DNA of 64,000 bases. It comes from a virus. The notes under the pieces are model-generated. The model searched no databases. It saw nothing but the letters and a program-made list of their open reading frames with translations, and was not told where the DNA came from. Within the stretch, counting starts at the first letter, position 1, and every line of letters begins with the position of its first letter. Of this stretch, positions 43,004 through 62,369 are shown piece by piece. The position numbers and the translations under genes are program-made. The stretch lies in the IMG/VR virus record IMGVR_UViG_3300045988_112906; one strand, written 5' to 3'.

Positions 43004-43394
43004 ATCGCTTGCAATTATAGAAAATATCCTCTGCAGAACGAGGAGACAGGAAGAATTCGGGGGCTGGCTCTCCTACCAGAAACTGGCAGATGAAATGGAG
43101 CGACTGCCCGATAAACTCCTTCTTCTGAGATACTGCGTTCAATCTATCGAACAGAGAATAGTACATTCTCCTTCTCGGTTCCGTCATGGCATCCACCTCA
43201 GAGAAATCGCCTACCACCATTTTTCTGAGCTTCTCGAATGCCTGCTTCGGATTCACATAATATCTCGGTGCGGGATGAGATACTATCTTCGCCCACGCCT
43301 CCTTTGCGGTGTGGCAGGTGGGTGCTACCTCACGATAAGTCTTCATCAGGTCTTCCCGTTGCTTTTCCGTCAAGCTATAATTGGTTTTCGTCAT
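42969..43394 (-). CDS. Hypothetical protein
   Basis: 141-aa ORF. Its start sits in AAGCGTATG. Confidence 0.6.
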   Translation of the reverse strand: MTKTNYSLTEKQREDLMKTYREVAPTCHTAKEAWAKIVSHPAPRYYVNPKQAFEKLRKMVVGDFSEVDAMTEPRRRMYYSLFDRLNAVSQKKEFIGQSLHFICQFLVGEPAPEFFLSPRSAEDIFYNCKRYGKGYRDGKHE

Positions 43395-43508
43395 ACGCTT
43401 TACTCGTTAAATCGTACTGCAAAGGTACGAATAATCTAGAATACGTCCAAATAAATAATATATTTTAATATTTTGCTCATTTTTTATGGTTTTGTGCAGG
43501 AATATTTT

Positions 43509-43518
43509 TATCTTTGCA
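43509..43518 (+). promoter_or_regulatory. -7 box 10-mer TATCTTTGCA
   Basis: About 80 nt upstream of ATG 43596. Confidence 0.55.
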
Positions 43519-43595
43519 CCGACTAAAACATTTAGCTACCGTTTTCTAATAAACAGCAACTAGATCAACGATATCAACATAAAATTGAAACAAAA

Positions 43596-44159
43596 ATGAA
43601 AAAGAGTATTAACAACGCTCTTTCAGAAGAAGAGCAAGAGCTGGTTCTGCAAGGTTTGCTGAGCCGCAAAATTTGGAGATTCTATGAACTCCTGGCAAAA
43701 TGGGCACCCATACCGCTGATGCTAGGGCACTGGTATGGAGTTTGGGACTATGGGCGTTACCCAAGACCTACCGTACTTGATACGGCTGATAACGGAAATT
43801 GTATCATCTGGATTTACTTTCTGGCATACGTGTATATGCCAATCTGCATGATACCAGTGAGCTTCTTCTTCAGATACTGCTGGATTTTCCGCATCCCATT
43901 CTTCTACTTCATTGGCATCAATGCCATCAGACTGTATTATCGGCACTGGCTCATCACGCCAGACCAACTGGAGACGCACCATGTATTTATCATTTTTACA
44001 TTAATATTATATGCCTATGGATTTATCAAGATCGCTATCACACGTAGCAAATGCCGCATTTCAGATGTTTCAGAACGGAGAATGCGGTTTTTCGGAAGAA
44101 GAAGAGAGAATCGTACAGAGAAACCTTCTGTACTGGATGGAAAGAAGACATCACTTTGA
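43596..44159 (+). CDS. Multi-pass membrane protein
   Basis: Several hydrophobic helices. It is the first gene after the promoter box. Confidence 0.6.
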   Translation: MKKSINNALSEEEQELVLQGLLSRKIWRFYELLAKWAPIPLMLGHWYGVWDYGRYPRPTVLDTADNGNCIIWIYFLAYVYMPICMIPVSFFFRYCWIFRIPFFYFIGINAIRLYYRHWLITPDQLETHHVFIIFTLILYAYGFIKIAITRSKCRISDVSERRMRFFGRRRENRTEKPSVLDGKKTSL

Positions 44160-44478
44160 TGAGAAGCTGGGAAGAGCCTGCATCGCCAACATCTACTATT
44201 TCAAGGATGATGTGACCAAGGAGTATGCTCCATTCTTCGGTTACGAGGAAATGAAGGAGGAGTACGACAAGCAGGCTTGGATGATTCCCGACTACACGAT
44301 GTGGGATTTTGCCGTGACCATGAACAAGATGTTTGCAGAAAACATTGATGTGATTGGCAAATGGTCGAGAAGCAAGGAGACCCTGAAGAAGAGAATCTCC
44401 GAACTATCAGTGAGTTTCCTCTGCGACGAGTCAACCAATCACCCCACCGATAAAATTTGGTGGTACATGAACAGTTAG
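44011..44478 (+). CDS. Hypothetical protein
   Basis: The ORF overlaps the previous gene. The likely real start is ATG 44065 (MFQNGE...). Confidence 0.55.
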   Translation: MPMDLSRSLSHVANAAFQMFQNGECGFSEEEERIVQRNLLYWMERRHHFDEKLGRACIANIYYFKDDVTKEYAPFFGYEEMKEEYDKQAWMIPDYTMWDFAVTMNKMFAENIDVIGKWSRSKETLKKRISELSVSFLCDESTNHPTDKIWWYMNS

Positions 44479-44520
44479 ACGGAAACACGGAAAAAGCTAT
44501 CTGAAAACCCCTTATCTTTG
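44479..44520 (+). promoter_or_regulatory. Late promoter: ACGGAAACACGG-N22-TATCTTTG, ahead of the lysis cassette
   Basis: The element lies at 44479-44490 and the box at 44513-44520. The architecture is identical to the 33.1-kb pair. Confidence 0.6.
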
Positions 44521-44538
44521 CGCCATTAATCAATATTA

Positions 44539-44997
44539 ATGGTATATATGGCAGAGATTATTCATACATTTTTGCAAGAGCACCTGTACAGATCGGCATT
44601 GGTTATTGCCATCTGCATGGGTGCTCTTATCATTTCTATGGGCGTGGACCTGTTCTTTGGCATCAAGAAAGCGAAGGAGAACGGACTGGCTACGACAAGT
44701 ACAGGATTCAAGAAGACTTGCGACAAGGCGAGGAAATACTTCTCTCCCTTCATGGTGACGGTCTGCATAGACCTGATAGCCTGTACGGTTCTCCCCTTCC
44801 CTGTCTTCTCTATGATATGGGCAGGCTATTGCGTGTTCTGTGAATTTGTAAGCGTAAGAGAGAAGAGCTGGCAGAAGGCTGAGATACGGAAGCAGGAGAA
44901 AACGGTAAGCATTCTTCTGGAGAACAAAGAAGACTTGGCTAGGGCTTTTGCCGAGATTATGAAGGAACTGGAAAAGGAGAAGGAGGGCAAGGTATGA
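44539..44997 (+). CDS. Holin-like membrane protein
   Basis: Two or three TM helices and a charged C-terminal tail. Lies immediately upstream of, and overlaps, the amidase gene. Confidence 0.55.
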   Translation: MVYMAEIIHTFLQEHLYRSALVIAICMGALIISMGVDLFFGIKKAKENGLATTSTGFKKTCDKARKYFSPFMVTVCIDLIACTVLPFPVFSMIWAGYCVFCEFVSVREKSWQKAEIRKQEKTVSILLENKEDLARAFAEIMKELEKEKEGKV

Positions 44998-45416
44998 GAC
45001 TGATTGAGAGAATTTTCGTTCACTGTACTGCCTCTTCTCAGAAATGGGGCGTAAAGGAGCTTTGGGATGAGTTTAAGCGCAAGGGCTGGAAGAACCCCGG
45101 CTATCACTATGTAATTACCAAGGATGGTGGCATACACCAGATGCTGCCGGTAGAAATGGTTAGCAACGGTGTGAAGGGATATAATTCTACTGCCATCAAT
45201 ATTGCCTATGTGGGCGGTATCGACTCGAAGGGAAAGGCTGTAGATAACAGAACCAAGGAGCAGAAGGATGCTCTGGTTACCCTGCTTAGACAGCTGAAAA
45301 AGAAATATCCGAATGCGGCGATTATGGGGCATCGTGACATTTGGGGGGCAGACAAGTCGAAGTGGAAGAAGATGTGCCCTTGTTTTAATGCGAAAGAGGA
45401 ATATAAAAATCTATAG
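44994..45416 (+). CDS. N-acetylmuramoyl-L-alanine amidase endolysin (PGRP / amidase_2 type)
   Basis: IFVHCTAS...GYHYVITKDG...GYNSTAINIAYVGG...MGHRD...CPCF. Confidence 0.8.
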   Translation: MRLIERIFVHCTASSQKWGVKELWDEFKRKGWKNPGYHYVITKDGGIHQMLPVEMVSNGVKGYNSTAINIAYVGGIDSKGKAVDNRTKEQKDALVTLLRQLKKKYPNAAIMGHRDIWGADKSKWKKMCPCFNAKEEYKNL

Positions 45417-45419
45417 CGT

Positions 45420-45860
45420 ATGAAGTGGTATGACATAAAATTTTGGAAATGGACTTGCATCGGTTTAGTGGTTGGAGTTATCCTACTGGCATTTACTAGC
45501 TGCAAGACCAAGGAGTATGTGAAGGTTCCCGAGTATCATACTGAGTATATTGTGAGAAGTGATACTATCGCCAAAATGGATAGTGTGTATGTGAAGGATT
45601 CGGTTTATGTGTATCAGAAGGGTGATACCGTGGTTATAAGCAAGATTGCCTATCGGGACCGATACCGCAATATATATAAGGTGAAGCTTGATACCATCTT
45701 CAAGCATGATTCAGTTTCCGTGCCAGTACCAGTTGAGCGGCAACTTACCAAAAGTGAGCAGAGATTAATGACACTGGGAAGATGCTATATCGGATTTCTT
45801 TTCCTGTTGGCTGTATGCGCCATCGGCTTTGCCTTCTGGTATCACAATAAAAAGTGCTAG
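45420..45860 (+). CDS. Unimolecular spanin-like protein (N-terminal lipobox plus C-terminal TM helix)
   Basis: LLAFTSC lipobox and the C-terminal helix IGFLFLLAVCAIGFAFW. Follows the endolysin gene. Confidence 0.6.
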   Translation: MKWYDIKFWKWTCIGLVVGVILLAFTSCKTKEYVKVPEYHTEYIVRSDTIAKMDSVYVKDSVYVYQKGDTVVISKIAYRDRYRNIYKVKLDTIFKHDSVSVPVPVERQLTKSEQRLMTLGRCYIGFLFLLAVCAIGFAFWYHNKKC

Positions 45861-45863
45861 CTT

Positions 45864-46175
45864 ATGGGAAAGATTAGCGAAGAACTCCAAATGATAGACT
45901 CGCTCCTGATGGAATTTCATGAGCGGATTCAGTCGGGGCGATGCCTTACCAATAAGCTTCAGAACAAAATGATGCTGAATTTCCTGCATCAGATTGCCAA
46001 CAAGGATGAGCCGATCAGTAAAGCTGAGGCTTGCGGTTATGTCAAAGTTTCCAGGGCTACCTTTGACCGGCTGGTGAAAGAAGGAAGGCTTCCTAAGGGA
46101 CGGAAGCGCAAGGGCTGGACCGAACTTGTTTGGTATGAAAAGGATTTGGATAAGTACATAGATAAGTTGATTTAG
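45864..46175 (+). CDS. Small HTH DNA-binding protein (excisionase / MerR-like)
   Basis: ISKAEACGYVKVSRATFDRLVKEGRLPKGRK. Confidence 0.55.
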   Translation: MGKISEELQMIDSLLMEFHERIQSGRCLTNKLQNKMMLNFLHQIANKDEPISKAEACGYVKVSRATFDRLVKEGRLPKGRKRKGWTELVWYEKDLDKYIDKLI

Positions 46176-46232
46176 GTATAATTTTAGGTTTTTGTTTTTA
46201 TAGGTTAGACGTTTGTTTATTTAGCTAAAAAT

Positions 46233-46260
46233 CCCCACCCGGCTGTGAAGCTAGGTGGGA
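46233..46260. terminator. Hairpin between convergent genes
   Basis: A TCCCCACC...GGTGGGA stem. Confidence 0.45.
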
Positions 46261-46268
46261 ATTGTAGT

Positions 46269-46610
46269 TTACTCTCCAAGAATATCCTTGATTTTCTTTT
46301 CGATGAACTCATTAGAAGTGAGTTTCTTAATAAGTTCATCTATATCAGGTAACTCTGCATCAACTCCGACTTCCTGATTTTTGGAGGAAACATATTCCTT
46401 TAGTGCTTTCATCCAAGAACTATTAGCCATGTCTGCCAACGAATCTTTTTTGCTCTCGTAGGCTTTCTTCACCTCTCCGTTATCTCGGAAATATCTGAGC
46501 ACTTCCGTTAATGCAACAATGAAGTTCTTGTCTATCATCGGGTTGCTCTTTGCCTCTTCCAGTTTAAGCATCAGGAAGAGCAATGATGAATGTAAATCTG
46601 TTTTGTTCAT
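46269..46610 (-). CDS. Early-region hypothetical protein
   Basis: 113-aa ORF. Confidence 0.6.
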   Translation of the reverse strand: MNKTDLHSSLLFLMLKLEEAKSNPMIDKNFIVALTEVLRYFRDNGEVKKAYESKKDSLADMANSSWMKALKEYVSSKNQEVGVDAELPDIDELIKKLTSNEFIEKKIKDILGE

Positions 46611-46613
46611 AAT

Positions 46614-46697
46614 TTAATCCTTTCTTCTACGATTTTTGATATGTAATGCTAAAGCGCAAAACGACAACAATAGCACTAATAATTGTCCTGCTTCCAT
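46614..46697 (-). CDS. 27-aa single-TM micro-protein (not in the ORF track)
   Basis: MEAGQLLVLLLSFCALALHIKNRRRKD. Its stop lies 3 nt before the next ATG. Confidence 0.35.
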   Translation of the reverse strand: MEAGQLLVLLLSFCALALHIKNRRRKD

Positions 46698-46743
46698 ATT
46701 ACTTTTCCTCCATTATTTTCTTTGCCAATCTAATCTTCATACG

Positions 46744-46920
46744 CTAATTAATTCCCTCCTCAATCGTTTTGAGATAGTAAAGTGTATTACCGATACATGT
46801 AAGTTCCTTGCAAGGACTTTTATAAGTCTCATAGATTTGTTCCAAATCCTTGATAAATTGTTGTAGCTTAATTTTATCCTCCCAATCGAGAACTACTACT
46901 TTTCTTGTTTCTTTTTTCAT
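46744..46920 (-). CDS. 58-aa hypothetical protein (not in the ORF track)
   Basis: Both its start and its stop sit in TAGCGTATG junctions. Confidence 0.5.
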   Translation of the reverse strand: MKKETRKVVVLDWEDKIKLQQFIKDLEQIYETYKSPCKELTCIGNTLYYLKTIEEGIN

Positions 46921-46923
46921 ACG

Positions 46924-47064
46924 CTAAAAGATTAATTGTTTGTTTCTACTGAGAACATGGAGATATTTTCTTCTCCAAGCTAAATTGTTTTCTACTTTAA
47001 TATGCCCGTCTGGGAATTGATGTACTCTATCCCAATAAGCAAACATAGAGAATATACTTTTCAT
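46924..47064 (-). CDS. 46-aa hypothetical protein (not in the ORF track)
   Basis: Both its start and its stop sit in TAGCGTATG junctions. Confidence 0.45.
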   Translation of the reverse strand: MKSIFSMFAYWDRVHQFPDGHIKVENNLAWRRKYLHVLSRNKQLIF

Positions 47065-47067
47065 ACG

Positions 47068-47439
47068 CTACTTCTCCTTATCGAATTTATTACCTACAAT
47101 CGTTACTGATAGTCCACTTTTCACCAAATTACAAAGCAGACATTCTGTATATTTTCCAAACTTAGCATAGAAAGCTCCGTCTTTAAATACAACTTCACCT
47201 TCGCCATCAAAGCCAATAATGTCACCTTCAAAAATAGGCACATCGTTGGTGTCTTTCAGTCCTGTGAATTGGCAGACTGTAGAAGGGTCAACTTCATAAG
47301 TGATATTTCTGTTGAACATACTTTCTTTCTGACAATTTTCGATGATGTAGGCATTACCACATTCGGAATAAAAGTAACCTTCTACCCAAGTGTTGTCATC
47401 AATACGTTTAGCCTTGAACTTGATATTTTCTACTTTCAT
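47068..47439 (-). CDS. YopX-like protein
   Basis: The N-terminal pattern KFKAKRIDDNTWVEGYFY and the DIIGFDGEG segment are typical of the YopX family. Judged by eye. Confidence 0.6.
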   Translation of the reverse strand: MKVENIKFKAKRIDDNTWVEGYFYSECGNAYIIENCQKESMFNRNITYEVDPSTVCQFTGLKDTNDVPIFEGDIIGFDGEGEVVFKDGAFYAKFGKYTECLLCNLVKSGLSVTIVGNKFDKEK

Positions 47440-47451
47440 AAGCTATAATTC

Positions 47452-47742
47452 TTATTTTTCCATTTCAACACGCATCAGAAAATTGTCAGCAAAGTTTTCA
47501 AAATCAAACTTGCCACCTATTGTTCCATGAAAGCGATACTTAGTGAAGCACTTTTTGCACTCACAGACCATCATATAGCCATGAGGAGTATCACACCACC
47601 CAATAATATTTCTAGCGTGATAACTACAACTTTTATTATCACACTCCTCATTAGGACAATTAAGTCCCTCACTATACTCTATAGACTCCCAATTACTAAT
47701 CTTCATCGGGAGCATTTCTTCCATTAAGCTTTTGTCTGCCAT
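47452..47742 (-). CDS. Cys-rich (zinc-ribbon-like) small protein
   Basis: CPNEEC...CSYH...CECKKC. Confidence 0.6.
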   Translation of the reverse strand: MADKSLMEEMLPMKISNWESIEYSEGLNCPNEECDNKSCSYHARNIIGWCDTPHGYMMVCECKKCFTKYRFHGTIGGKFDFENFADNFLMRVEMEK

Positions 47743-47944
47743 ATTCTCTTCTTTTTACCCTCCCCATGATGTTATCAAAATAATAACGGATTGGAGTCTT
47801 TATGAGCCTTTCACTCATTAACGTTCTTCGATGTGTACTAAATGCTTGATACCTTTTCCACATAAGAGTGCTCTGAGGTGAATTGTCAAGCGGTAATTGA
47901 TATTTTACGGCTACACCTAATGCCAACCAATCTAATTCGAGCAC
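47696..47944 (-). CDS. Hypothetical protein
   Basis: 82-aa ORF overlapping the next gene by 47 nt. Confidence 0.35.
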   Translation of the reverse strand: MLELDWLALGVAVKYQLPLDNSPQSTLMWKRYQAFSTHRRTLMSERLIKTPIRYYFDNIMGRVKRREYGRQKLNGRNAPDED

Positions 47945-47990
47945 GGCTTTTTCATTATTATCTTAATTTCACCAAGGTGAGGGTGGTTAG

Positions 47991-48140
47991 TTACTCTGTT
48001 ATCACTACATCAAAATCTTCAAATTCACAATTCTGTTCTACAATATCTTCTTTAATAGCATTTTTGATACTATAAAGATATTCTTCCGCCTTGTCTAATT
48101 CTTTACCTCTCAGAATTACTTTAAAAGAAATTTCTTCCAT
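47991..48140 (-). CDS. 49-aa acidic hypothetical protein (not in the ORF track)
   Basis: MEEISFKVILRGKELDKAEEYLYSIKNAIKEDIVEQNCEFEDFDVVITE. Preceded by a conserved 16-mer. Confidence 0.4.
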   Translation of the reverse strand: MEEISFKVILRGKELDKAEEYLYSIKNAIKEDIVEQNCEFEDFDVVITE

Positions 48141-48175
48141 ATTACTTCTATTTATATCCTTTACAGGATGGTTAG

Positions 48176-49027
48176 TTACTCATTAACTTCAACAAACTTT
48201 CCGTTTTTAAGTTGATACCAAGTATCAGCCTTGATATTCTCTCCATCAACGTACTCTGTCTTAACACATACTGGAACATTACGTTTCTTTTTATCGCTCC
48301 ATTTCCATTCTGCCAGCGTTATCCATGAGCCAACCTTTGCTTTCGCTATTGAACTGTTGCCAGCACACATAATAACGGAATCTTCTCCAGTGCTACCAAT
48401 CTTAGCAGAGTAGCCCGATGAACCAATCTTAGCATAGTCGCCCGATGAACCAATCTGAGCATAGTAGCCCGATGAACCAATCTGAGCAGAGTAGCCCGAT
48501 GAACCAATCTGAGCAGAGTTGCCCGATGAACCAATCTGAGCAGAGTCGCCCGATGAACCAATCTGAGCAGAGTCGCCCGATGAGCCAATCTGAGCAGAGT
48601 AGCCCGATGAACCAATCTTAGCATAGTCGCCCGATGAACCAATCTGTTTTCTTCGGTCTCCGTTGTCGTTCAACTCACCATCTGTCTTAACTTTAGATGT
48701 TGATGTAATATCTTTCAGCCACTCGACACCGATATTAATGATGTCAGCAAGCTTCAACTCAGCCTTAATCTTGATACGAGAAGAGCATACCTTTGTTGAA
48801 TTTTCTTCTTTATCAATCTTACCAGACTGTTCTACCTCTGCATAGCGAGAGCTAAGCATATCGTAGTAGTCCCACACTTCCATTGGAGACTTGCAAGCGT
48901 GGAAACCTTGTTTGCAACACTTGATTTCTCCGTCCATTTCATACTCTTTTCCTACTTCGTACTGAAATCCATGGCATTTCATATTCTTGTCGAATCCCTT
49001 GTACGATGTGATTACATTTTCACTCAT
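48176..49027 (-). CDS. Repeat protein with about 9 copies of a 9-aa unit (IGSSGxxAQ)
   Basis: A globular Cys/His-containing N-terminal domain followed by nonapeptide repeats. Confidence 0.7.
   Translation of the reverse strand: MSENVITSYKGFDKNMKCHGFQYEVGKEYEMDGEIKCCKQGFHACKSPMEVWDYYDMLSSRYAEVEQSGKIDKEENSTKVCSSRIKIKAELKLADIINIGVEWLKDITSTSKVKTDGELNDNGDRRKQIGSSGDYAKIGSSGYSAQIGSSGDSAQIGSSGDSAQIGSSGNSAQIGSSGYSAQIGSSGYYAQIGSSGDYAKIGSSGYSAKIGSTGEDSVIMCAGNSSIAKAKVGSWITLAEWKWSDKKKRNVPVCVKTEYVDGENIKADTWYQLKNGKFVEVNE
48396..48645 (-). repeat. 27-bp tandem repeat, about 9.3 copies, in-frame and coding
   Basis: The unit is ccaatct(g/t)agca(g/t)ag(t)(a/c/t)gcccgatgaa. Confidence 0.9.
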
Positions 49028-49058
49028 ATTCTATCTATTTATATCCTTTGTAGAATGA

Positions 49059-49364
49059 TTAATCAATCTTCTTGATGCTACCAATTTCCATACTCAATAG
49101 AACAAACTCTCTATTGGAGCGAGTTCCATCTTTCTTAGTAGGATTGATTCTTACATCAATCTCGCCAGTATAACCTTTATAACCACGCTTTGGAACAATG
49201 CTTGCAATCCAACAAACATCACATCTGGAGCAGCTAACTTTGTCTCCAACTTTGTATGGAAGACTTTCTATGTAATCATTTACGTAAGAACAAATCTCAT
49301 TGTTAGCATCATTGATAATGCTTAGTTGCTTGGCAACCTTTACTTTTAATTCTTCCTTTGTCAT
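49059..49364 (-). CDS. Early-region hypothetical protein
   Basis: ATG 49364 (MTKEELK...) is preferred over the tracked start. Confidence 0.55.
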   Translation of the reverse strand: MTKEELKVKVAKQLSIINDANNEICSYVNDYIESLPYKVGDKVSCSRCDVCWIASIVPKRGYKGYTGEIDVRINPTKKDGTRSNREFVLLSMEIGSIKKID

Positions 49365-49390
49365 ATCTTTAAAATTTATGCCCGAAAGCG

Positions 49391-49522
49391 TTAAACATCT
49401 ATTTGATTTGCACACTCTTCTGTTTCATCAGGAACAGATAACTGATCCCACATATCACATTTATCTTTGTCATTATAGATACAAGGTCTGTGACAGATTC
49501 CTCTAATATCTTCTCTTAACAT
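49391..49522 (-). CDS. 43-aa Cys-containing micro-protein (not in the ORF track)
   Basis: MLREDIRGICHRPCIYNDKDKCDMWDQLSVPDETEECANQIDV. Its start lies in TAGGTATG. Confidence 0.4.
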   Translation of the reverse strand: MLREDIRGICHRPCIYNDKDKCDMWDQLSVPDETEECANQIDV

Positions 49523-49524
49523 AC

Positions 49525-50025
49525 CTACACCTCCATTTCGTGATTAATACCAAGACCGAAGAGAAGATGTTGGAGTTCATGGACATAATGAACTTCAAAT
49601 TTTAATGTCTCTCCACGCATATCTATAACCCAACCATCCTTCTTATTTTGATAATAAAGCTGAAAACATGTATAATTGACTTCATCATTTTCATCACCTC
49701 CCATAAATGCTTCTGATAAAGAAAATACACTTCCGTCTTTTTCTTCTTTATCCCATACATTCTTCTCTAGAATCTCTGGAGTAATAGGGATAGGAACAAT
49801 ATCCTTAACCCAAGCACAGCAATCTCCGAAGAGATAACCTTTGTCTCCAAATTCAACACCTTCAAGATTCTCTAAGCGAACAACACCTTTCATAACCGTT
49901 CCATCGTCCAACTTCAAAGTCTTTGATGGGTCTGATGATGTTACTCGGTAAACGACATCCTGTTCTGTACCTAGTGGTGCTCCGTTTGTCATTACCAAAT
50001 CTCCTGGAATATATAACTTATCCAT
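49525..50025 (-). CDS. Early-region hypothetical protein
   Basis: 166-aa ORF. Its start lies in TAAAGCGTATG. Confidence 0.65.
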   Translation of the reverse strand: MDKLYIPGDLVMTNGAPLGTEQDVVYRVTSSDPSKTLKLDDGTVMKGVVRLENLEGVEFGDKGYLFGDCCAWVKDIVPIPITPEILEKNVWDKEEKDGSVFSLSEAFMGGDENDEVNYTCFQLYYQNKKDGWVIDMRGETLKFEVHYVHELQHLLFGLGINHEMEV

Positions 50026-50030
50026 ACGCT

Positions 50031-50309
50031 TTACTTTTCAAGTTTCTTAATCAATGCCTTAATCTTATCGCAAATCAAAGAATCGTCACATATGGTTCTA
50101 ATATACTTCAAATCCTTGATTATCTCATGGTTGGTAGGTACACCATGCTTCTTTCTTACCCATTCAATGAACTCTGGAATTACGACATTATAACTTTCCA
50201 AATATCTACTTTCTCTGCCATTGTAAGACAGAAGATAGTGGTTCTTTCTTGTTAAGAGCCACCACAAAGCGATTAACTTGTTCTTGATATTTAATAATTT
50301 CTGTTTCAT
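50031..50309 (-). CDS. Early-region hypothetical protein
   Basis: 92-aa ORF. Confidence 0.6.
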   Translation of the reverse strand: MKQKLLNIKNKLIALWWLLTRKNHYLLSYNGRESRYLESYNVVIPEFIEWVRKKHGVPTNHEIIKDLKYIRTICDDSLICDKIKALIKKLEK

Positions 50310-51265: not shown

Positions 51266-52003
51266 TTATTTCTGTTCTTTACGTCTGTCTTGGCGATAGA
51301 ACTTCCGTTCTGCCATCTTCCGCTCTTCTTCGGTCTTGTAAAGCACCTGATTAACATCATGCTTGCTCATATCTACGGTATGAATGCGATGGGTGGCAGG
51401 ATCCAGACCGTTCTTCTCGCAATAAATCTTCCAAGCTTCCACGCCATGTGGGTTCTTGGCTTCTTCGGCTGCTTTTCTGATTTCCTCTGCCCTTCTGCGC
51501 TCATCGTCCTGTCTTCCACGCTCTGCCAGCATATCCTGCTCGTATTTGTTGAGCGCTTCGATAATATCCTGCGGATTGATGGTCGTGTTGTTATCATCGT
51601 GCTTGTGCTGGAACAGCTTGCCGTACTTTCCATCCATGATGGTGACAAAGGCATAGTCCAGTTCGGTGGTGGTCCAATAATGATACTTGGCACAGATTCT
51701 TGCGGCAAGCATCTGAACCTGATACTCCGTAACGATGTCGAAGACTCCGAGATAGGTGAAAAGTTCTATCAGTTTGCCCTTGACCCAGCCAACAAGACTA
51801 GGCAATCCTCTCTGCATGCGGACGGAAAGCAAAGTGGTGCTGCTCTTGGTGCAGGCATCAGCGAAGGAAGTAGGACGAATATAGTCCGGCTTATCCTTGA
51901 TAATCGGAACCAAGGATTCTTGCTGCCTTTGCTGCAAGATTGTTTGCTCTCTGTTGTTCATTGCTCTGTACTGGATAAATTTCATCCTCCCATCTTGCTC
52001 CAT
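51266..52003 (-). CDS. Hypothetical protein (possibly replication-associated)
   Basis: 245-aa ORF with a basic/acidic C-terminal tail. Its 5' end overlaps the upstream ORF, so the start is uncertain. Confidence 0.55.
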   Translation of the reverse strand: MEQDGRMKFIQYRAMNNREQTILQQRQQESLVPIIKDKPDYIRPTSFADACTKSSTTLLSVRMQRGLPSLVGWVKGKLIELFTYLGVFDIVTEYQVQMLAARICAKYHYWTTTELDYAFVTIMDGKYGKLFQHKHDDNNTTINPQDIIEALNKYEQDMLAERGRQDDERRRAEEIRKAAEEAKNPHGVEAWKIYCEKNGLDPATHRIHTVDMSKHDVNQVLYKTEEERKMAERKFYRQDRRKEQK

Positions 52004-52388
52004 TCAGATAAGTGAGAGGGTGCATTCTATATTGTTTTCTGGAACCATCTGATACGGAACCTGGAATAACCGTGTTCGCCACATAAGCAGGAACGGCTCT
52101 CATGCAGGCTGTCTTTTCGAAAGGTTTCAATCTATTCCACTTCTCTTCTGCTTTCTTGCGTCCCTTCTTGTACGCATAGGCATCCCAAAAGTCTTGGAAG
52201 GTTGGTATTGGAAACGTTACCTGCAAGTCCACGGTCTCCACCTCGTTCTCTTCCGGGAACATCGGCTTCTCCTTGTAATACTTGCCGGTTGCCATGAATC
52301 TTGCGCCATTCACAAATGCGTCACGCATGGCTTCGTTGTCGGGGGCATAGTTGTTAGCCTCGGCAATGACTTCCTTTAATGTTTTCAT
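51891..52388 (-). CDS. Hypothetical protein with an FW..Y..K.GRKKAEEKW motif (possibly replication initiation)
   Basis: The start lies in AGCTTATG. The functional suggestion is a guess. Confidence 0.5.
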   Translation of the reverse strand: MKTLKEVIAEANNYAPDNEAMRDAFVNGARFMATGKYYKEKPMFPEENEVETVDLQVTFPIPTFQDFWDAYAYKKGRKKAEEKWNRLKPFEKTACMRAVPAYVANTVIPGSVSDGSRKQYRMHPLTYLNGARWEDEIYPVQSNEQQRANNLAAKAARILGSDYQG

Positions 52389-52408
52389 AAGCTTGTAGTT
52401 TTTATGAG

Positions 52409-56750: not shown

Positions 56751-57039
56751 TTTCCTTATCTTTATTCTGTTCTTGTTTCTCTCTCAGCTCCTTTTCGTAA
56801 GCTTCGAATGCGCAAGCGGCTGCATAGGCGAATGCATTGCTATTGCGCATAGCTTGAAGAAGGAGTTGCTGTAAATCTCCATCTGAGGCGTGGAGAAAGG
56901 AGAAGCCCTGCTTGGTGCTGGCATCGCCCATAAGGATGATGCAGCGGAAATGCTTGCCGTGTTCTCCTGCCTTGTCAACCTCCTCGGTAACCTTTCTGAT
57001 TTGGTTGAAGTAATTTTGTCTGATATTCTTTCTACTCAT
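56731..57039 (-). CDS. Hypothetical protein
   Basis: 102-aa ORF. Confidence 0.55.
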   Translation of the reverse strand: MSRKNIRQNYFNQIRKVTEEVDKAGEHGKHFRCIILMGDASTKQGFSFLHASDGDLQQLLLQAMRNSNAFAYAAACAFEAYEKELREKQEQNKDKENEEDNN

Positions 57040-57122
57040 GATTCCTTTCTTTCTAAAAACCTGCCCACGCCCGGTTGCTACCCGAGAAATGGGCAGGAAA
57101 GTGCATATATGAAAACTACTAA

Positions 57123-57641
57123 CTAACTATCTGTTGAACCTTGCCCCTTTCGTGTGCCGGTTACCTTGCCAAGTTCCAAGTTTACATCTGGAACATAGGT
57201 GAAGGCACCCTGACAAATGCGCCAGCTATAAGGGAGAACGAACTTGAAACCGAGGAGTCGCAAAATGCGATTCTTCCATTTCCACCTGCCCGACTTCACA
57301 ATGGCGTGGACCTCATCGCCATAACCGCAATCTATCAAGCCGAGAACCACATCAAGGTTCTCTCTTACCTTGCCCAAGCGACCGCCCTTCATCCAAGAAG
57401 GGAAATACACGTCAAGCTGCATGCCTTTGCTCGACATACCGCTGCGTGGCTGGATCAGCATCTTCACATTGGATGGAAGCTGAATCTTGAACCCGAGCGG
57501 AACGTAATAGCGAGCGTAAGGAGCCACCTCCATATCCTTTGCTACATGAAGGTCGTAAGCGGCATCCGTCTCATACGCCTTTGTCGGGAAACAACCATGC
57601 GTCACTAACTCTACTTTAATTTTTGTACCGAATTTACTCAT
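57123..57641 (-). CDS. dut: dUTPase-like protein
   Basis: DAAYDLHV, IQPRSGMSSKG and GLIDCGYGDEV match dUTPase motifs. Confidence 0.7.
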   Translation of the reverse strand: MSKFGTKIKVELVTHGCFPTKAYETDAAYDLHVAKDMEVAPYARYYVPLGFKIQLPSNVKMLIQPRSGMSSKGMQLDVYFPSWMKGGRLGKVRENLDVVLGLIDCGYGDEVHAIVKSGRWKWKNRILRLLGFKFVLPYSWRICQGAFTYVPDVNLELGKVTGTRKGQGSTDS

Positions 57642-57648
57642 ATATAAT

Positions 57649-58158
57649 CTATTCTGTTAAATGTTTCTCATCAAGAAGCTTATCCACTTCCTTCTGATAG
57701 AAGTCTATCATAGCCTTATACTCAAACAAAGACCAGTTCTTGGATTCCTGCTTTGCCCGGACCTCTATCAAGTCAACTCTCTGTTCCCCAATCTGCTTGA
57801 TAAGCGCTCGGCGGTACATCTGAATATTACCTTGATTGAAGATATTGCAGGCTACACATTGCGGTCGGCAGTTGTCTTCGCTGAATCGGGTGGACATATA
57901 TCGTCTTGACATATAATGCCCATTCTGAATATCCTTCCAATAGAACACCTTGCCACAACTGATGCAGCGGCAATTACCTCTATCGTCTGAGAATTTCAGC
58001 CGGATATATTTAGAGAAGACGGAATCAAGCTTATCTCTCAGCTTGCTCTTGCTGAGACCAGCTTTAGCCTTCTTCTTTTCCTGCTCCTTCTTGGGCTTAT
58101 CCCAAGGAGTTTTCTTTATCGGAGTCCTTTTCAGGGGCTTGTATCTTCTTAATACCAT
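57649..58158 (-). CDS. ninG: NinG/Rap-like recombination protein
   Basis: FSKYIRL...CISCG...GHYMSRR...CVACN follows the NinG pattern. Confidence 0.65.
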   Translation of the reverse strand: MVLRRYKPLKRTPIKKTPWDKPKKEQEKKKAKAGLSKSKLRDKLDSVFSKYIRLKFSDDRGNCRCISCGKVFYWKDIQNGHYMSRRYMSTRFSEDNCRPQCVACNIFNQGNIQMYRRALIKQIGEQRVDLIEVRAKQESKNWSLFEYKAMIDFYQKEVDKLLDEKHLTE

Positions 58159-58173
58159 ACCTTATTATATATA

Positions 58174-58365
58174 TTATAGTGTATTGTACTTACCCTCTTC
58201 ACGTCCCATGTCTGCTGCGAGATTCTTGATACGTGAGTTGAGCATATTAATCTTTCTGACTTTCAGCTCAAAAATCTCCAGCGGACACCACGGATTCCTT
58301 TCGAGCTGTTTGTATATATCGTCCACTCGCTCTTGATAGGACCGAGTCGTGAATAATTGAAGCAT
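58174..58365 (-). CDS. Hypothetical small protein
   Basis: 63-aa ORF. Its start lies in ATAGCGTATG. Confidence 0.5.
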   Translation of the reverse strand: MLQLFTTRSYQERVDDIYKQLERNPWCPLEIFELKVRKINMLNSRIKNLAADMGREEGKYNTL

Positions 58366-58514
58366 ACGCTATTGTTTTTAAGTTTGAAAATCCTGCCTAT
58401 CCTCACGGACTGGCAGGGATCATTATATGATAAAATCTCAAATTCCGCCCAATATGTTGCCGCTGCAACAGGGGGCATTGCTTTTTAATTCAGATAAATA
58501 TGAAAAATTAAAAG

Positions 58515-58624
58515 TTGCAGAAGTGGGACTCGAACCCACGACCAGGTCGCACGGTTGATAAGAATATGTTAAGGGTTTACTCATTATGTTACGTGCCTGC
58601 TCTAACCAACTGAGCTATTCTGCA
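58515..58624 (-). tRNA. tRNA-like gene with canonical acceptor, D and T arms but a 38-40-nt AU-rich sequence in place of the 7-nt anticodon loop. Isotype not assignable.
   Basis: Sense strand: TGCAGAA-TA-GCTC-AGTTGGTTA-GAGC-A-GGCAC-[40 nt]-GTGCG-ACCTGGTC-GTGGG-TTCGAGT-CCCAC-TTCTGCA-A. Confidence 0.75.
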
Positions 58625-59003
58625 ATATAGCGGCATCGTGCGCTACCACGAATTTAAGAGCCATGCTCACCGCTCGGGCTTGCGAAGGATTTTTGTAATA
58701 CTAACAAGCAATCAGTTATTATTTTGCTTTCATCCTCGCTTACCCTATATAAAGACTTAATATCCTTCAGCTTAATTTTTCCAATAAGTCAATGATCGTA
58801 TGCCCACCGAAGGGGCAATGGGATAGCTTTGCGATTGCCATTAAAATGAAAGGTGTTGGTAGAATAGCCGCCAAAGCTATTTCCTTCTGGTTCGTGGCAT
58901 CTTGTTTCGACCCGCAAATAATGAAATATCCGCCACTTGACATATACCGCTCTTTTGTCACCTTACATCACATTTTTATAATAACAAAACACAAAAACTT
59001 GTG

Positions 59004-59103
59004 TGGGCTTGGGGCGAGTTGAACACCCTTGCTAGAAAACCTGCTAAATTGCTGACTGGCGCCTAAGGTCTCCCTCTACTACCGAGCAGACTGGCTCAAA
59101 CCC
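59004..59103 (-). ncRNA. Second tRNA-like element (acceptor stem and T arm; aberrant D region; 25-nt anticodon loop)
   Basis: Sense strand: GGGTTTG...GCTC-GGTAGTA-GAGG-G-AGACC-[25 nt]-GGTTT-TCTAGCAA-GGGTG-TTCAACT-CGCCC-CAAGCCC-A. Confidence 0.35.
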
Positions 59104-59240
59104 GGTTGATACTCCTATTATCACGAACGAGAGTACCTTGATGTTATTTATTTTAGTTATACACATTCGATTAAGATTTTCTTCAAGCAACCTCCACCCT
59201 GCTCACGCAGGATGGGGGCTTGGTTTTAAATCACAACTTT

Positions 59241-59258
59241 TATCTAAAAGCCGAACGG
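59241..59258 (-). terminator. Terminator of the cro-like gene
   Basis: Leftward sense: AAGCC-GTTC-GGCTT followed by TTTAG. Confidence 0.5.
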
Positions 59259-59264
59259 CTTCCT

Positions 59265-59474
59265 TTAATCTTCCACAAGTTCGGGGTACTTCTTGACGAG
59301 GATACCACCGAACCTATTGCAAGTAACATTTCGAATATCGACTGCTAACTTGCTGTTTGTCTTATATGCTATTGCAGCGTAAACTGCCGCATTGCAGCAG
59401 CCGACTGACTTAGCTATTTTGCCGATTTTTGATTTTCTAACCAAAATTTTCTGTTTATATACCACTTTATCCAT
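59265..59474 (-). CDS. Small HTH protein (Cro-like position)
   Basis: IGKIAKSVGCCNAAVYAAI looks like an HTH. The gene is divergent from the XRE-type repressor gene. Confidence 0.55.
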   Translation of the reverse strand: MDKVVYKQKILVRKSKIGKIAKSVGCCNAAVYAAIAYKTNSKLAVDIRNVTCNRFGGILVKKYPELVED

Positions 59475-59484
59475 ACTTTTTTAT

Positions 59485-59494
59485 TATCTTTGCA
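59485..59494 (+). promoter_or_regulatory. -7 box 10-mer TATCTTTGCA (rightward)
   Basis: TAnnTTTG match in the switch region. Confidence 0.5.
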
Positions 59495-59547
59495 CACGTA
59501 AAACATTAAATGATAAAGAAACGATGAATCGTTGTCTGAATCACGGA

Positions 59548-59557
59548 TGCAAAGATA
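59548..59557 (-). promoter_or_regulatory. -7 box 10-mer TATCTTTGCA (leftward)
   Basis: The reverse complement of tgcaaagata. It faces the 59485 box. Confidence 0.5.
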
Positions 59558-59639
59558 TATAATTATAGGCAATTAGCCAAGCGTATAGGCATTATTTTAT
59601 ATTTAATTTATCTATTTACACATTTATAAACATATAGCT

Positions 59640-60014
59640 ATGGAAGGATTAAGAGACAGAATCAATGTGATAAGAGACCATTACAGACTGTCTAACAGAG
59701 GGTTTGCAGAAGCAATCGGTGCAAAACCAGCTGCTACGAACAACTATTTGAATGGTACAAAGGAGCCGTCATTAGAGTTTGTGGATAGGATTCTGTCCAC
59801 ATACATAGACGTGTCGGCAGATTGGCTTCTACGAGGCAAGGGAACCATGTTCTATGAGGAAGATAAGCCAACCGATGAAGCGCTCTTGAAGGAACTTGCA
59901 GAAGCAAAGGTCAAGCTGCTCGTACAAGAGGGCATCACCAAGGAGCTTCGTGATATGCTCCTTGAGAAGAATAACGGAAAGATAGCCGAAGACCGCAAGA
60001 GTCTTGTAGGCTGA
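59640..60014 (+). CDS. XRE-family HTH repressor (CI-like)
   Basis: LSNRGFAEAIGAKPAATNNYLNGTKEPSLEFVDRIL...ADWLLRGKG. Confidence 0.7.
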   Translation: MEGLRDRINVIRDHYRLSNRGFAEAIGAKPAATNNYLNGTKEPSLEFVDRILSTYIDVSADWLLRGKGTMFYEEDKPTDEALLKELAEAKVKLLVQEGITKELRDMLLEKNNGKIAEDRKSLVG

Positions 60015-60126
60015 TACCTATATATACGAAAAAAGCAGGGCACTAGGCTCTGCTTTTTCTGTTACCACATTATCATTCTGTTGCATTCTTGCTGCCACAT
60101 ATAGGCAAGTTGTCTCTTATATTCTT

Positions 60127-60396
60127 TTATAAGTTAAAACATGCCTTTACTTTCCATTTGGTACGCCTGCCTAATATTACATACTTAAAATTCTCGGTAT
60201 AGATGTATGCATGACCAACGGCTGTGTTCTTCTCTTCAGTCTTTGGGCTTACACGTCTTTCTATAATAACAAACTTCGCAGCCTTCTTTAGCTTGCGAGG
60301 AATGCGAGCCTTAAATCTTTCAAAAAATCTTCTTCTCATGCCCACCTCACTTTTTGACAAAAAACGCTCCTGCGCACCAATCGTTGCTTTCGGCAT
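60127..60396 (-). CDS. Basic hypothetical protein
   Basis: 89-aa ORF that overlaps the upstream ORF by 50 nt. Confidence 0.45.
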   Translation of the reverse strand: MPKATIGAQERFLSKSEVGMRRRFFERFKARIPRKLKKAAKFVIIERRVSPKTEEKNTAVGHAYIYTENFKYVILGRRTKWKVKACFNL

Positions 60397-60673
60397 TAGT
60401 ATTCAACTTGACACATCTTCCGACAAACTCATTACCTTTATAATGCTTACAACGACTGCATTCCTTTGATTTTCTCAAAATTGCACGAAACAAACTGACG
60501 TTAGCACTAGGGGCATTTGCCTTATTCCATCTGACTACAGCTTTTTTGTACAGATATACAAATCTAGGTAAGAACCTACTATCTTCTTTGATTCCATCCT
60601 CTGAATCGAAGTAACGTTCATCCGTTCCTCTCTTCATAATATTCAGAATCTTCTTGGCACTTCTGATTTTCAT
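60347..60673 (-). CDS. Hypothetical protein with a Cys cluster
   Basis: CSRCKHY...RC...WC. Its start lies in TAGCGTATG. Confidence 0.6.
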   Translation of the reverse strand: MKIRSAKKILNIMKRGTDERYFDSEDGIKEDSRFLPRFVYLYKKAVVRWNKANAPSANVSLFRAILRKSKECSRCKHYKGNEFVGRCVKLNTNAESNDWCAGAFFVKK

Positions 60674-60676
60674 ACG

Positions 60677-61051
60677 CTATTTGAACTTGATGATGAAAAA
60701 TTCATGATTCAACCATTTGTCGGGGCACAAGCCCTTCTTTGGTTTGCCAATGCTGATGCTCTCAATATCCTTTCCGATACGTGAACTATCCTTGCGGTAG
60801 CCGTTGATGAAGAGGACGTGGGTATATTGTTTTAACACAATTCTCTGTGCGTCAATATATTTTTTAAGTAAATCCGTTCGCCCTGCCAAAGCCAAGGCAA
60901 GATGTCGCACATCAACGATATTGCTATTGTTTTGAAGTAATCGTGCTACCCAATACGGCTTTATCTCCCGATACTCTTCATCCTTTTTTCCGTCAGCAAT
61001 CATTTCAAACCATCGCTTGCTGACGGTGAGGGTCAATACTTTCTTTTTCAT
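60677..61051 (-). CDS. ASCH-domain-like protein
   Basis: KRWFEMIADGKKDEEYREIKPYW. Confidence 0.55.
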   Translation of the reverse strand: MKKKVLTLTVSKRWFEMIADGKKDEEYREIKPYWVARLLQNNSNIVDVRHLALALAGRTDLLKKYIDAQRIVLKQYTHVLFINGYRKDSSRIGKDIESISIGKPKKGLCPDKWLNHEFFIIKFK

Positions 61052-61054
61052 ACG

Positions 61055-61351
61055 CTATTTCTTTCTAGTATATTCAATATCCTTGTAAGATACTCGCTCC
61101 TTGCTCCAAGTCACCTCATCCAACTCATCGAAGTCGGCACTATCGGGTGTGTCTTCTCCTATGACCAAAAAGACACGATCAGGAACGTTGGTCATTTCGT
61201 TCTCACCCTCAAACTCTCGGATGGTGGTATCTAGAAGGTCGTAGAGGTCTTGTGATTGCCCCTCGAAAAGCATCTTCTTAGTATCACCCTTCCGATTTTT
61301 GAGTTTCTTTCTAGCATCCTTCAATGCTTCGTAAGTCTCTTGTGTAATCAT
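61055..61351 (-). CDS. Acidic hypothetical protein
   Basis: 98-aa ORF. Confidence 0.6.
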   Translation of the reverse strand: MITQETYEALKDARKKLKNRKGDTKKMLFEGQSQDLYDLLDTTIREFEGENEMTNVPDRVFLVIGEDTPDSADFDELDEVTWSKERVSYKDIEYTRKK

Positions 61352-61373
61352 AACTTTATAATTTTTGATTTTA

Positions 61374-61517
61374 CTAACTAAGCCTTCTGCCTTTCAGAAT
61401 CACCACTCTTTTGTGGTGTTCAGCCGCATATTGCAATTTACGGAGAAGTTCTTTCTGTGCCCAACTCAGTTTTGCATCAGTCAAATACTTATCCATTACC
61501 TTTATCAGTCTGTCCAT
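61374..61517 (-). CDS. 47-aa hypothetical protein (not in the ORF track)
   Basis: MDRLIKVMDKYLTDAKLSWAQKELLRKLQYAAEHHKRVVILKGRRLS. Confidence 0.4.
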   Translation of the reverse strand: MDRLIKVMDKYLTDAKLSWAQKELLRKLQYAAEHHKRVVILKGRRLS

Positions 61518-61687
61518 ATTTTAAATGTATATCCCCACTGTCTAGCTTTCAGGTACGCCAATCTTTTGCGCTTTTGAAGTTTAGTCGTATCTTTAATATT
61601 ACGAACCAATTTTAGAGCTATCAATTGCGGTTCTGATAGAGTTATACGCTTACCGTACTCACTCAAATCTACGTTTACTATTGCCAT
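61505..61687 (-). CDS. Hypothetical small protein
   Basis: 60-aa ORF. Confidence 0.5.
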   Translation of the reverse strand: MAIVNVDLSEYGKRITLSEPQLIALKLVRNIKDTTKLQKRKRLAYLKARQWGYTFKIWTD

Positions 61688-61694
61688 AACACTA

Positions 61695-61826
61695 TTATTT
61701 TAATTGTTCACACGCTTTCTTTTCCCACTCGGCAAAGGAAAGAATATCCTTCCCCTTGCCAAACACTCTCATGTGTCGCTTGTAGCTATTGTAAGCCGCA
61801 AGCTTTATTTCATCCATTTCTGTCAT
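61695..61826 (-). CDS. 43-aa hypothetical protein (not in the ORF track)
   Basis: MTEMDEIKLAAYNSYKRHMRVFGKGKDILSFAEWEKKACEQLK. Its start lies in TAGCGTATG. Confidence 0.45.
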   Translation of the reverse strand: MTEMDEIKLAAYNSYKRHMRVFGKGKDILSFAEWEKKACEQLK

Positions 61827-61829
61827 ACG

Positions 61830-62081
61830 CTACAACTTTTCTATTTGCGACTCCAAGTTACGAATTTTGTCCTTGATGATGGCGATAACTTTCCCTTTAA
61901 TTTCTTTAATACCTTCATCGCCAAGAACACGGTTCGCAATGAACATATCTCCGTTTCTTTCTCGACTACAAAGAATCACGTTTAACTCTACAGAAGGGTT
62001 CAGCGCAAATTTCAGAAGATTTCTATCGTAATCGAGATCCTTCTTGAGCTTGATAGCTTTCTCTAAATCCTGCTCTGTCAT
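61830..62081 (-). CDS. Hypothetical small protein
   Basis: 83-aa ORF flanked by TAGCGTATG on both sides. Confidence 0.6.
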   Translation of the reverse strand: MTEQDLEKAIKLKKDLDYDRNLLKFALNPSVELNVILCSRERNGDMFIANRVLGDEGIKEIKGKVIAIIKDKIRNLESQIEKL

Positions 62082-62084
62082 ACG

Positions 62085-62369
62085 CTAGTCCTCCTTCTTA
62101 ACATTGTCAACATTAAAACCTCTTCTATACAACTCTTCAAGCATAGTTTGAGAGTCGGCATAGTTGATGTTCTCGTTCACAAACTTATCCATGTCGCTGA
62201 ATGATTTGCCCGAAGCAGGGTCCGTGATGGCGAACTTGTTTAGCTCATCTTTCATGTCCACAAGGGATAATATAATCTCCTCATAAGTCTGCTTTTGGAT
62301 TTTACCCTCCATGCACAAGACTTTTACGATGGTAACAATCTTGTCTATCTGTTTAAATACCTTTTCCAT
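62085..62369 (-). CDS. Hypothetical small protein
   Basis: 94-aa ORF. Confidence 0.6.
   Translation of the reverse strand: MEKVFKQIDKIVTIVKVLCMEGKIQKQTYEEIILSLVDMKDELNKFAITDPASGKSFSDMDKFVNENINYADSQTMLEELYRRGFNVDNVKKED

Follow-up and report, generated by a model that had tools for sequence, protein, structure and literature searches.

What does it mean when gene after gene of a phage opens with the same few bases? We took up this question for IMG/VR virus record IMGVR_UViG_3300045988_112906, a stretch of 64,000 nt (the whole of it is called the window here) in which a nine-base motif, (T/A)AGC(G/T)T-ATG, has a start codon as its last three bases. An initial annotation had listed 14 such gene starts and offered three roles for the motif: coupling of termination to reinitiation in an organism that lacks Shine-Dalgarno (SD) initiation, the target of a translational regulator like RegA or RegB of phage T4, or a short homology through which gene cassettes are shuffled. 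Sequence comparison indicates that the motif is a conserved start-site signal in many related ~75-kb gut phages, and not a general optimum for initiation. We tentatively propose, with a probability of about 0.4, that it is an operator on the mRNA at the translation-initiation site, where a trans-acting factor would bind and control the access of ribosomes.

A motif fused to start codons

When both variants are counted together as AGCKTATG, the window holds 16 copies; 100 dinucleotide-preserving shuffles gave 3.79 ± 1.78 copies, and 16 in none of them, which makes the excess over chance stronger than first reported. Fifteen of the 16 copies fall on a probable start codon: the 14 sites of the initial annotation, all of which exist (on the plus strand, 45414 and 45858 denote the T of TAG, and the 8-mers begin at 45415 and 45859), and a further one at 37163 (+). 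The single copy off a start, at 27817 (+), is antisense to gene 27661-28185. On both strands the motif is oriented as the gene is, and the ATG of each listed copy opens an open reading frame (ORF), being the first in-frame ATG after a stop. TAGCGT occurs 20 times in the window; the next triplet is ATG in ten of these, and any other triplet follows at most once. The ATG therefore belongs to the motif, and its register is fixed. The sites, with the one promoter box that bears on them, are these:

62079-62087, minus strand: TAGCGTATG; the ATG opens gene 61830-62081 (83 aa), the TAG ends gene 62085-62369
61824-61832, minus strand: TAGCGTATG; the ATG opens gene 61695-61826 (43 aa), the TAG ends gene 61830-62081
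61049-61057, minus strand: TAGCGTATG; the ATG opens gene 60677-61051 (124 aa), the TAG ends gene 61055-61351
60671-60679, minus strand: TAGCGTATG; the ATG opens gene 60347-60673 (108 aa), the TAG ends gene 60677-61051
58363-58371, minus strand: TAGCGTATG; the ATG opens gene 58174-58365 (63 aa), the TAG ends no ORF
52386-52394, minus strand: AAGCTTATG; the ATG opens a replication-initiator-like gene, 51891-52388, with the end of the upstream gene 20 nt away
50023-50031, minus strand: AAGCGTATG; the ATG opens gene 49525-50025 (166 aa)
47437-47445, minus strand: TAGCTTATG; the ATG opens a YopX-like gene, 47068-47439; the upstream stop comes earlier (TAA, 47452-47454)
47062-47070, minus strand: TAGCGTATG; the ATG opens gene 46924-47064 (46 aa), the TAG ends gene 47068-47439
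46918-46926, minus strand: TAGCGTATG; the ATG opens gene 46744-46920 (58 aa), the TAG ends gene 46924-47064
46738-46746, minus strand: TAGCGTATG; the ATG opens a 13-codon ORF, 46699-46740, the TAG ends gene 46744-46920
45858-45866, plus strand: TAGCTTATG; the ATG opens a gene for a helix-turn-helix (HTH) protein, 45864-46175, the TAG ends gene 45420-45860
45414-45422, plus strand: TAGCGTATG; the ATG opens a membrane-protein gene, 45420-45860, the TAG ends the amidase (endolysin) gene 44994-45416
43419-43427, minus strand: Bacteroidota-type -7 promoter box TACCTTTGC, ending 24 nt 5' of the ATG at 43394
43392-43400, minus strand: AAGCGTATG; the ATG opens gene 42969-43394 (141 aa), the first behind the promoter box, with no translated gene upstream
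37162-37170, plus strand: AAGCTTATG (8-mer 37163-37170), the 15th exact copy, absent from the earlier list; the ATG at 37168 opens gene 37168-37590 of the packaging/structural operon, with GGAG upstream
28183-28191, minus strand: degenerate copy TTGCGTATG at the start of a tail-fibre-like gene, 27661-28185, where the GCGTATG variant noted earlier is present

At ten of the 14 listed sites, the stop codon of the upstream gene overlaps or abuts the motif. Ten TAG stops had been reported; our recount gives nine (45414, 45858, 46738, 46918, 47062, 60671, 61049, 61824 and 62079), the tenth stop being the TAA at 50031. As had been described, the TAG at 58363 and at 47437 terminates no ORF, and xAAG takes its place at 43392, 50023 and 52386; at 50023 the first A of the motif is the final base of the TAA that ends gene 50031-50309. 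The copy at 43392 begins 19 nt past the box TACCTTTGC, the first base of which lies 33 nt 5' of the ATG. The copy at 58363 stands ~150 nt downstream of a tRNA-like gene (see below) and reads AGCGT or GGCTT in orthologues.

The short ORF behind the copy at 46738 deserves comment. In relatives, ORFs of 66-86 codons begin at this start (ATGAAGATTAGATTRGCA), and we therefore regard 46738 as a genuine gene start whose gene is truncated in the window. The remnant region (46636-46740, minus strand) consists of the 13-codon ORF (MKIRLAKKIMEEK), a TAATATG junction and then a 26-codon hydrophobic ORF. The full version, of 66-86 aa, follows at least four different genes among the relatives.

Copies of the motif are unevenly distributed along the window: 13 of the 15 exact ones lie at 43-62 kb, among accessory, replication and lysis genes, where they belong to early operons read leftward from promoters near 59.5 kb and 63.7 kb, to the lysis cassette and to one gene behind a promoter. 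Structural genes are nearly free of the motif, the exceptions being the packaging-operon copy and the degenerate copy at the tail-fibre-like gene. Over this phage and its relatives, the motif marks ~15-20% of genes (about one in six), mostly small accessory, early and lysis genes in operons.

Conservation, host and gene set

We compared the window with 72 related IMG/VR loci around RecT, most of them from contigs of ~65-78 kb and nearly all from human-gut samples. Across the window and these loci, an ORF of 40 codons or more begins at 426 of the 496 motif ATGs (29% for all other ATGs), and in 411 of those 426 ORFs the motif supplies the first in-frame ATG. The remaining ~70 copies are about what chance would give in ~1.4 Mb, as extrapolated from the window shuffles, and many of them are small or missed starts. 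AGCGT and AGCTT are the two most frequent pentamers ahead of predicted starts. These counts come from a crude longest-ATG ORF caller applied to genomes that are related to one another, and the safer figure is that of 66 distinct motif-led starts, before unrelated genes, which are left after the removal of related contexts. Beyond the motif itself, all that the 66 contexts have in common is an A- or purine-rich tract at -14 to -9 (A in 52-74%), A or T at -6 (T 65%, A 33%) and, past the ATG, codons rich in A.

At orthologous junctions, compared over 41-66 loci, the pentamer remains AGCGT, AGCTT or GGCTT while the upstream non-coding columns show 40-70% identity, and G and T interchange at a single position. 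The motif is conserved at the syntenic core junctions 52388 and 45864 in 43-66 loci; at the former, AGCTT is retained in 65 of 66 loci despite a diverging upstream flank. This retention of RGCKT beside diverging flanks supports the earlier description of the motif as a start-associated unit and not a mere stop-start overlap. So too do the ~15% of the 66 copies for which no upstream ORF ends within 15 nt, and the promoter-proximal copy at 43392, which has no gene upstream.

The motif may also extend beyond this family. A 16-mer, AAGTAAAGCGTATGRA, is present in at least 119 IMG/VR stretches, on contigs that range from 18 to 190 kb, some of which encode RtcB or an integrase. Many of the 16-mer loci contain arrays of small motif-led genes, with 0.2-1.4 extra copies per kb against ~0.06 expected; in a ten-locus subset of the other 16-mer loci, most motif-led genes have homologues in the accessory gene pool of the window family. 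We found no cultured relative with the motif-led cassettes in the phage collection.

What kind of host does this phage use? The window encodes a portal, a terminase, a SU10-type capsid protein, RecT, an SbcC-like nuclease, NinG, a dUTPase and an amidase endolysin, together with a CI-like repressor that faces a divergent early operon and a giant DarB-like polyvalent protein. By portal, the closest cultured relatives are Bacteroides phages (30-36% identity). A RecT 92% identical to that of the window is found on a contig of a Segatella copri metagenome-assembled genome (MAG), which is weak evidence as MAG binning can misplace phage contigs. Boxes of the form TAnnTTTGC number 22 against 11.3 expected, and about a dozen of them lie, correctly oriented, in the few intergenic gaps at the heads of operons; sigma-70 promoter matches in the window are no more frequent than chance. 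Ordinary starts are A-rich at -14 to -11 and have T at -1 in 73%, as is likewise seen in Bacteroides phages B40-8 and BKO1-TP3. Because of the boxes, the lack of sigma-70 enrichment, the Bacteroides-phage relatives and the A-rich start context, we judge the host to be a member of the Bacteroidota, and SD pairing is therefore not expected: ribosomes of this phylum work without it, and initiation there is promoted by an adenine at -3 (Baez et al. 2019, PMC6847099). The promoter and start-context data thus fit the proposal of an organism without SD initiation.

There is one observation that sits oddly with this host. In the window and the 72 loci, GGAG peaks sharply at -12/-13 in ~10-17% of gene starts (positions -13 to -11); this is proper SD spacing in a phage whose promoters point to the Bacteroidota, a phylum with presumably SD-blind ribosomes.

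The motif is more than the ordinary start context of such phages. B40-8 has no copy in 45 kb, and BKO1-TP3 has three in the 50 kb examined, one of them at a start (of 53 starts), so that a generic Bacteroides-phage start context can be rejected. A sister lineage, L051/L052, lacks the motif despite having the same promoter type and low SD usage; an SD-using host as the reason is rejected, since the SD-like fraction and TAnnTTTGC counts of this lineage match those of the rest of the family. From the near-absence of the motif in structural genes, in these two phages and in L051/L052, it follows that the motif marks a gene set and is not a general optimum. The phage's ordinary genes follow the Kozak-like start context of Bacteroidetes, with which the motif has in common the host phylum and an A-rich upstream tract; it departs from that context in having C at -3 and G at -4, positions where adenine is favoured (PMC6847099). 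When motif-rich loci were compared with motif-poor ones for gene content, over ±10 kb around RecT, no credible candidate for a factor emerged.

Possible modes of action

The operator that we propose would be a strand-specific RNA element embedded in the start, 5'-(A/G-rich tract at -14..-9)-W-R-G-C-K-U-AUG-R, and the genes it marks would form a co-regulated subset in a large group of human-gut Bacteroidota phages. Its invariant G-C-K core would be the recognition site of a sequence-specific factor, encoded by phage or host, and the bound factor would govern the access of ribosomes to the AUG by the logic of a T4 RegA operator. Its first bases (UAG, or A after UAA) would let the upstream stop overlap the element; upstream termination and downstream initiation would then fall 3-5 nt apart, on mRNAs unable to use SD pairing. 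The sequences themselves show the motif, its ATG register, its conservation, its gene-set restriction and the type of host; that action is at the level of RNA and that a factor exists we infer, as we do the direction in which it would regulate.

What points to an initiation signal on the mRNA is the combination of a sharp consensus, a fixed AUG register, restriction to a gene subset and departure from the A-rich optimum (C at -3, G at -4). Structure prediction yields no conserved hairpin in the RNA around the motif, the base-pairing probability profiles of motif and non-motif starts being alike; a hairpin is thus rejected, and its absence fits a site recognized in single-stranded form.

In T4, one phage protein, RegA or RegB, shuts off many early phage mRNAs: the cis sites of RegA lie at or around the AUG and are A/U-rich and poorly conserved, and RegB cleaves at GGAG in the ribosome-binding region. 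The motif resembles these sites in its cis position at the start and, as we propose, in marking a set of early phage mRNAs. Unlike RegA sites, it is sharp and contains G and C. A role of the RegA/RegB kind, as the initial annotation had suggested, stays plausible, although Pfam and PHROGs reveal no homologue of either protein among the ~75 proteins of the window (64 of ~75 kb).

Several points weigh against an operator of this kind. The same searches of the window proteins detect no RNA-binding regulator or nuclease at all. Eight or nine bases are short for a specific site. The 16-mer occurs in contigs of 18-190 kb, and a phage-encoded factor would have to be just as widely shared. Lastly, an upstream ORF (of at least 40 codons) ends 0-5 nt from 55% of the 66 non-redundant copies but from 19% of other starts, a link strong enough that the ribosome itself could be what reads the motif.

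This last point leads to an explanation without a trans-acting factor, which we consider unlikely: the motif would be an intrinsic termination-reinitiation signal that replaces the SD sequence, read by the ribosome alone, which would restart at an AUG 3-5 nt past UAG or UAA. An SD-blind host (PMC6847099) would suit such a signal, and the association with stops is tight: 74% of the 66 copies are within 15 nt of an upstream ORF end, compared with 30% of other starts, and the 3-nt stop-start junctions of the window and the 72 loci are nearly all TAGCGTATG (75) or TAGCTTATG (68). TAAAGCGTATG is a common 5-nt junction and TAAGCGTATG a 4-nt junction that is also present; with TAGCGTATG, these junctions show that the stop codon can overlap the first bases of the motif in any of three frames. 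A distance of +3 nt is the modal co-directional intergenic distance in the window (eight pairs), the usual 4-nt ATGA overlap being found in one pair only, and +2 and +3 outnumber -4 in the wider family. Among 1,695 prokaryotes, distances of -4 and -1 dominate, and coupling needs overlaps or very short distances (PMC10666635); the +3 mode of the window is therefore unusual.

Stop-start overlaps such as ATGA and TAATG are themselves used for translational coupling (Huber et al., PMC6728339, PMC10666635). As in these, upstream stop and downstream start at the motif are only a few nt apart, a distance at which coupling works; unlike these 4- or 1-nt overlaps, in which nothing stands between stop and start, the motif is a conserved spacer of fixed length, 3-5 nt, and it is also present without any upstream ORF. 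Reinitiation leaves further matters unexplained. The motif core is missing from tight junctions of other kinds in these genomes (TAAGTATG, TAGTTATG, TAATCATG and ATGA), and the invariant G-C-K is not accounted for. Structural genes, other Bacteroides phages and L051/L052 manage without the motif. A pairing partner for AGCKU in rRNA or tRNA was not identified, a point of inference only, with no host rRNA to compare. Moreover, the copy directly behind a promoter and the ~15% far from ORF ends indicate that the motif is not only a restart site. The earlier proposal of termination-reinitiation coupling fits the stop links, but by itself leaves the core, the scarcity in structural genes and the copies that follow no ORF unaccounted for.

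By the logic of T4 RegB, the motif might instead be the cleavage site of a sequence-specific endoribonuclease that cuts polycistronic early mRNAs at cistron starts, thereby inactivating them or making short leaders. A strand-specific, unstructured (as predicted) site in fixed register, placed between cistrons of early-type operons and confined to a gene set, would suit this. We nevertheless hold cleavage to be distinctly unlikely: the window proteins offer no nuclease candidate, and copies off starts are at about chance level, so that no avoidance of the motif inside other genes is evident. The sequence evidence does not set cleavage apart from the binding of a factor.

Just as improbable, in our estimate, is a linker for recombination, in which a shared stop-spacer-start junction of 9-20 bp would serve as micro-homology for the exchange of accessory cassettes, possibly aided by RecT, and would leave both ORFs intact. 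It is true that the most mosaic regions (46.5-50.5 kb and 60-64 kb) are where the motif clusters; one and the same downstream gene can follow different upstream genes, the homology stopping at the motif; arrays of small motif-led genes are common to contigs of very different size; and RecT and the SbcC-like nuclease are encoded nearby. Yet BLAST high-scoring segment pairs end within ±12 nt of motif starts 0-19 times and of other starts 0-25 times, a low-power test that leaves the earlier cassette-shuffling proposal unsupported. Equally good conservation at stable core junctions such as 52388 and 45864 points to direct selection, and homology needs neither a strict ATG register nor G/T alternation. 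Single-strand annealing proteins usually need homology far above the nine bp available here.

A bolder form of the proposed operator, to which we would give slightly less credence still, is a private translation-initiation code: a phage factor, protein or RNA, would read WRGCKU-AUG and steer SD-blind ribosomes onto or off mobile accessory genes. The GGAG peak at -12/-13 and the tRNA-like RNA with a 38-nt insert (see below) might be further parts of one translation-hijacking toolkit.

Cluster A mycobacteriophages such as L5 carry stoperators, asymmetric 13-bp DNA sites that are bound by the repressor and lie out of register with start codons. We think it very unlikely that the motif is a DNA-level site of this sort, at which a phage repressor or roadblock protein would silence prophage operons. 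Like stoperators, its copies are many, asymmetric and co-oriented with transcription at gene boundaries; the window has a CI-like repressor gene next to divergent promoters (59474-59640), and a motif-rich relative has an integrase. Unlike stoperators, the motif keeps a fixed ATG register, which a DNA site leaves unexplained; none of its copies is at a promoter, and it is shorter than the sites of HTH repressors, which are usually longer and often palindromic. Least probable of all is that the motif has no function of its own and was inherited with the accessory gene pool from one ancestral array: most motif-led genes on other contigs do have homologues in that pool, but the motif occurs in 66 unrelated contexts, is kept where adjacent non-coding bases diverge, and interchanges G and T at a single position among orthologues; at the orthologous junctions its positions already seem to evolve no faster than first and second codon positions.

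Other candidates fell more quickly. Duplication of one gene is rejected by the 66 unrelated contexts. No complementary small RNA turned up in the window, whose sole antisense-oriented copy lies in the tail-fibre gene. A Bacteroidota or sigma-70 promoter element is rejected, there being no TAnnTTTG match, no upstream conservation and sigma-70 sites only at chance level. Amber recoding of an in-frame TAG-CGT-ATG has a low probability: the window has no suppressor tRNA, and the out-of-frame TAAAGCGTATG and TAAGCGTATG are common.

The closest known analogue of the motif, though not of the same family, is provided by the start-associated sequences (SAS) of cluster K mycobacteriophages: 13-bp elements (GGGATAGGAGCCC) with an SD core (AGGAG), 3-7 bp upstream of the start at variable spacing (Pope et al. 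2011, PMC3203893, where stoperators are also mentioned). A role in translation initiation is suspected for them (PMC3203893). The motif is likewise a short, asymmetric repeat with many copies per genome in one orientation relative to genes; it stands immediately at start codons (mostly ATG), before many genes of unrelated families (15 starts in the window, 66 contexts), is conserved across sub-lineages, is largely confined to non-structural genes and at times includes the upstream stop. Unlike SAS, it is 8-9 nt long, its consensus WRGCKT lacks an SD core and runs straight into the ATG in fixed register, its phages have hosts in an SD-blind phylum, and it shows no counterpart of the extended SAS inverted repeats. 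The literature searched contains no description of the motif, and a sequence search returned only unrelated primer matches.

Neighbouring features and significance

A tRNA-like gene of 110 nt (58515-58624, minus strand; Rfam, 47 bits), not called by ARAGORN, has normal acceptor, D and T arms, and a 38-nt insert replaces its anticodon loop. Its sequence, along with the insert, is 100% identical in relatives that share only 66-84% identity in RecT; counterparts of the 110-nt form are at L027:5041-5150, L034:5232-5341 and L046:5381-5490. In the syntenic place, other relatives have 75-nt tRNA-like genes with abnormal anticodon loops of 6-8 nt (L038:4737-4812, L049:4162-4236 and others), of which one reads AAGGAGGU, which is SD-like, and others AAGGAUGCUU; AAGGAGG is in the loop in some relatives. 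None of the loops shows complementarity to the motif, and we rejected them as its partner. RtcB RNA ligase is encoded in the same arrays in some relatives. The gene is possibly a decoy, an intron-bearing tRNA or an attachment site.

Upstream of the early operon, divergent Bacteroidota-type boxes (59485-59493, plus strand; 59549-59557, minus strand) lie between the CI-like repressor gene (59640-60014, plus strand) and a small gene in the Cro position (59265-59474, minus strand), which heads the long leftward early operon; the region 59265-60014 looks like a lysis-lysogeny switch. Among the accessory genes, 48176-49027 (minus strand) encodes a 283-aa protein of about ten tandem GSSG(D/Y)(S/Y)A(Q/K)I repeats, with weak PHROG matches to tail-fibre or collagen-like proteins.

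The gene for the giant DarB-like protein (6-14948, plus strand; ParB, helicase, methyltransferase and LPD domains) is split by one in-frame TAG (7926-7928, plus strand). Its counterpart is a sense codon in 29 of the 29 relatives examined, mostly CAG (Gln) and in a minority Arg, and relative L095 has a separate CAG-to-TAG change at another Thr-Gln-Phe site of the gene. Either an anti-restriction gene has been knocked out sporadically, or the TAG hints at amber (Gln) suppression.

How start codons are chosen in the Bacteroidota, which ignore SD sequences, is only partly understood, and the control of phage gene expression there is almost unknown. A sharp, start-fused motif in very common human-gut phages offers a concrete handle on both, since it can be mutated in reporters and used as bait for a binding factor. 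Beside the start-associated sequences of mycobacteriophages, themselves unexplained, it is a second, independent example of its kind. The motif can improve the calling of starts for small phage genes, and it could serve as an expression part in the engineering of Bacteroides and Segatella.

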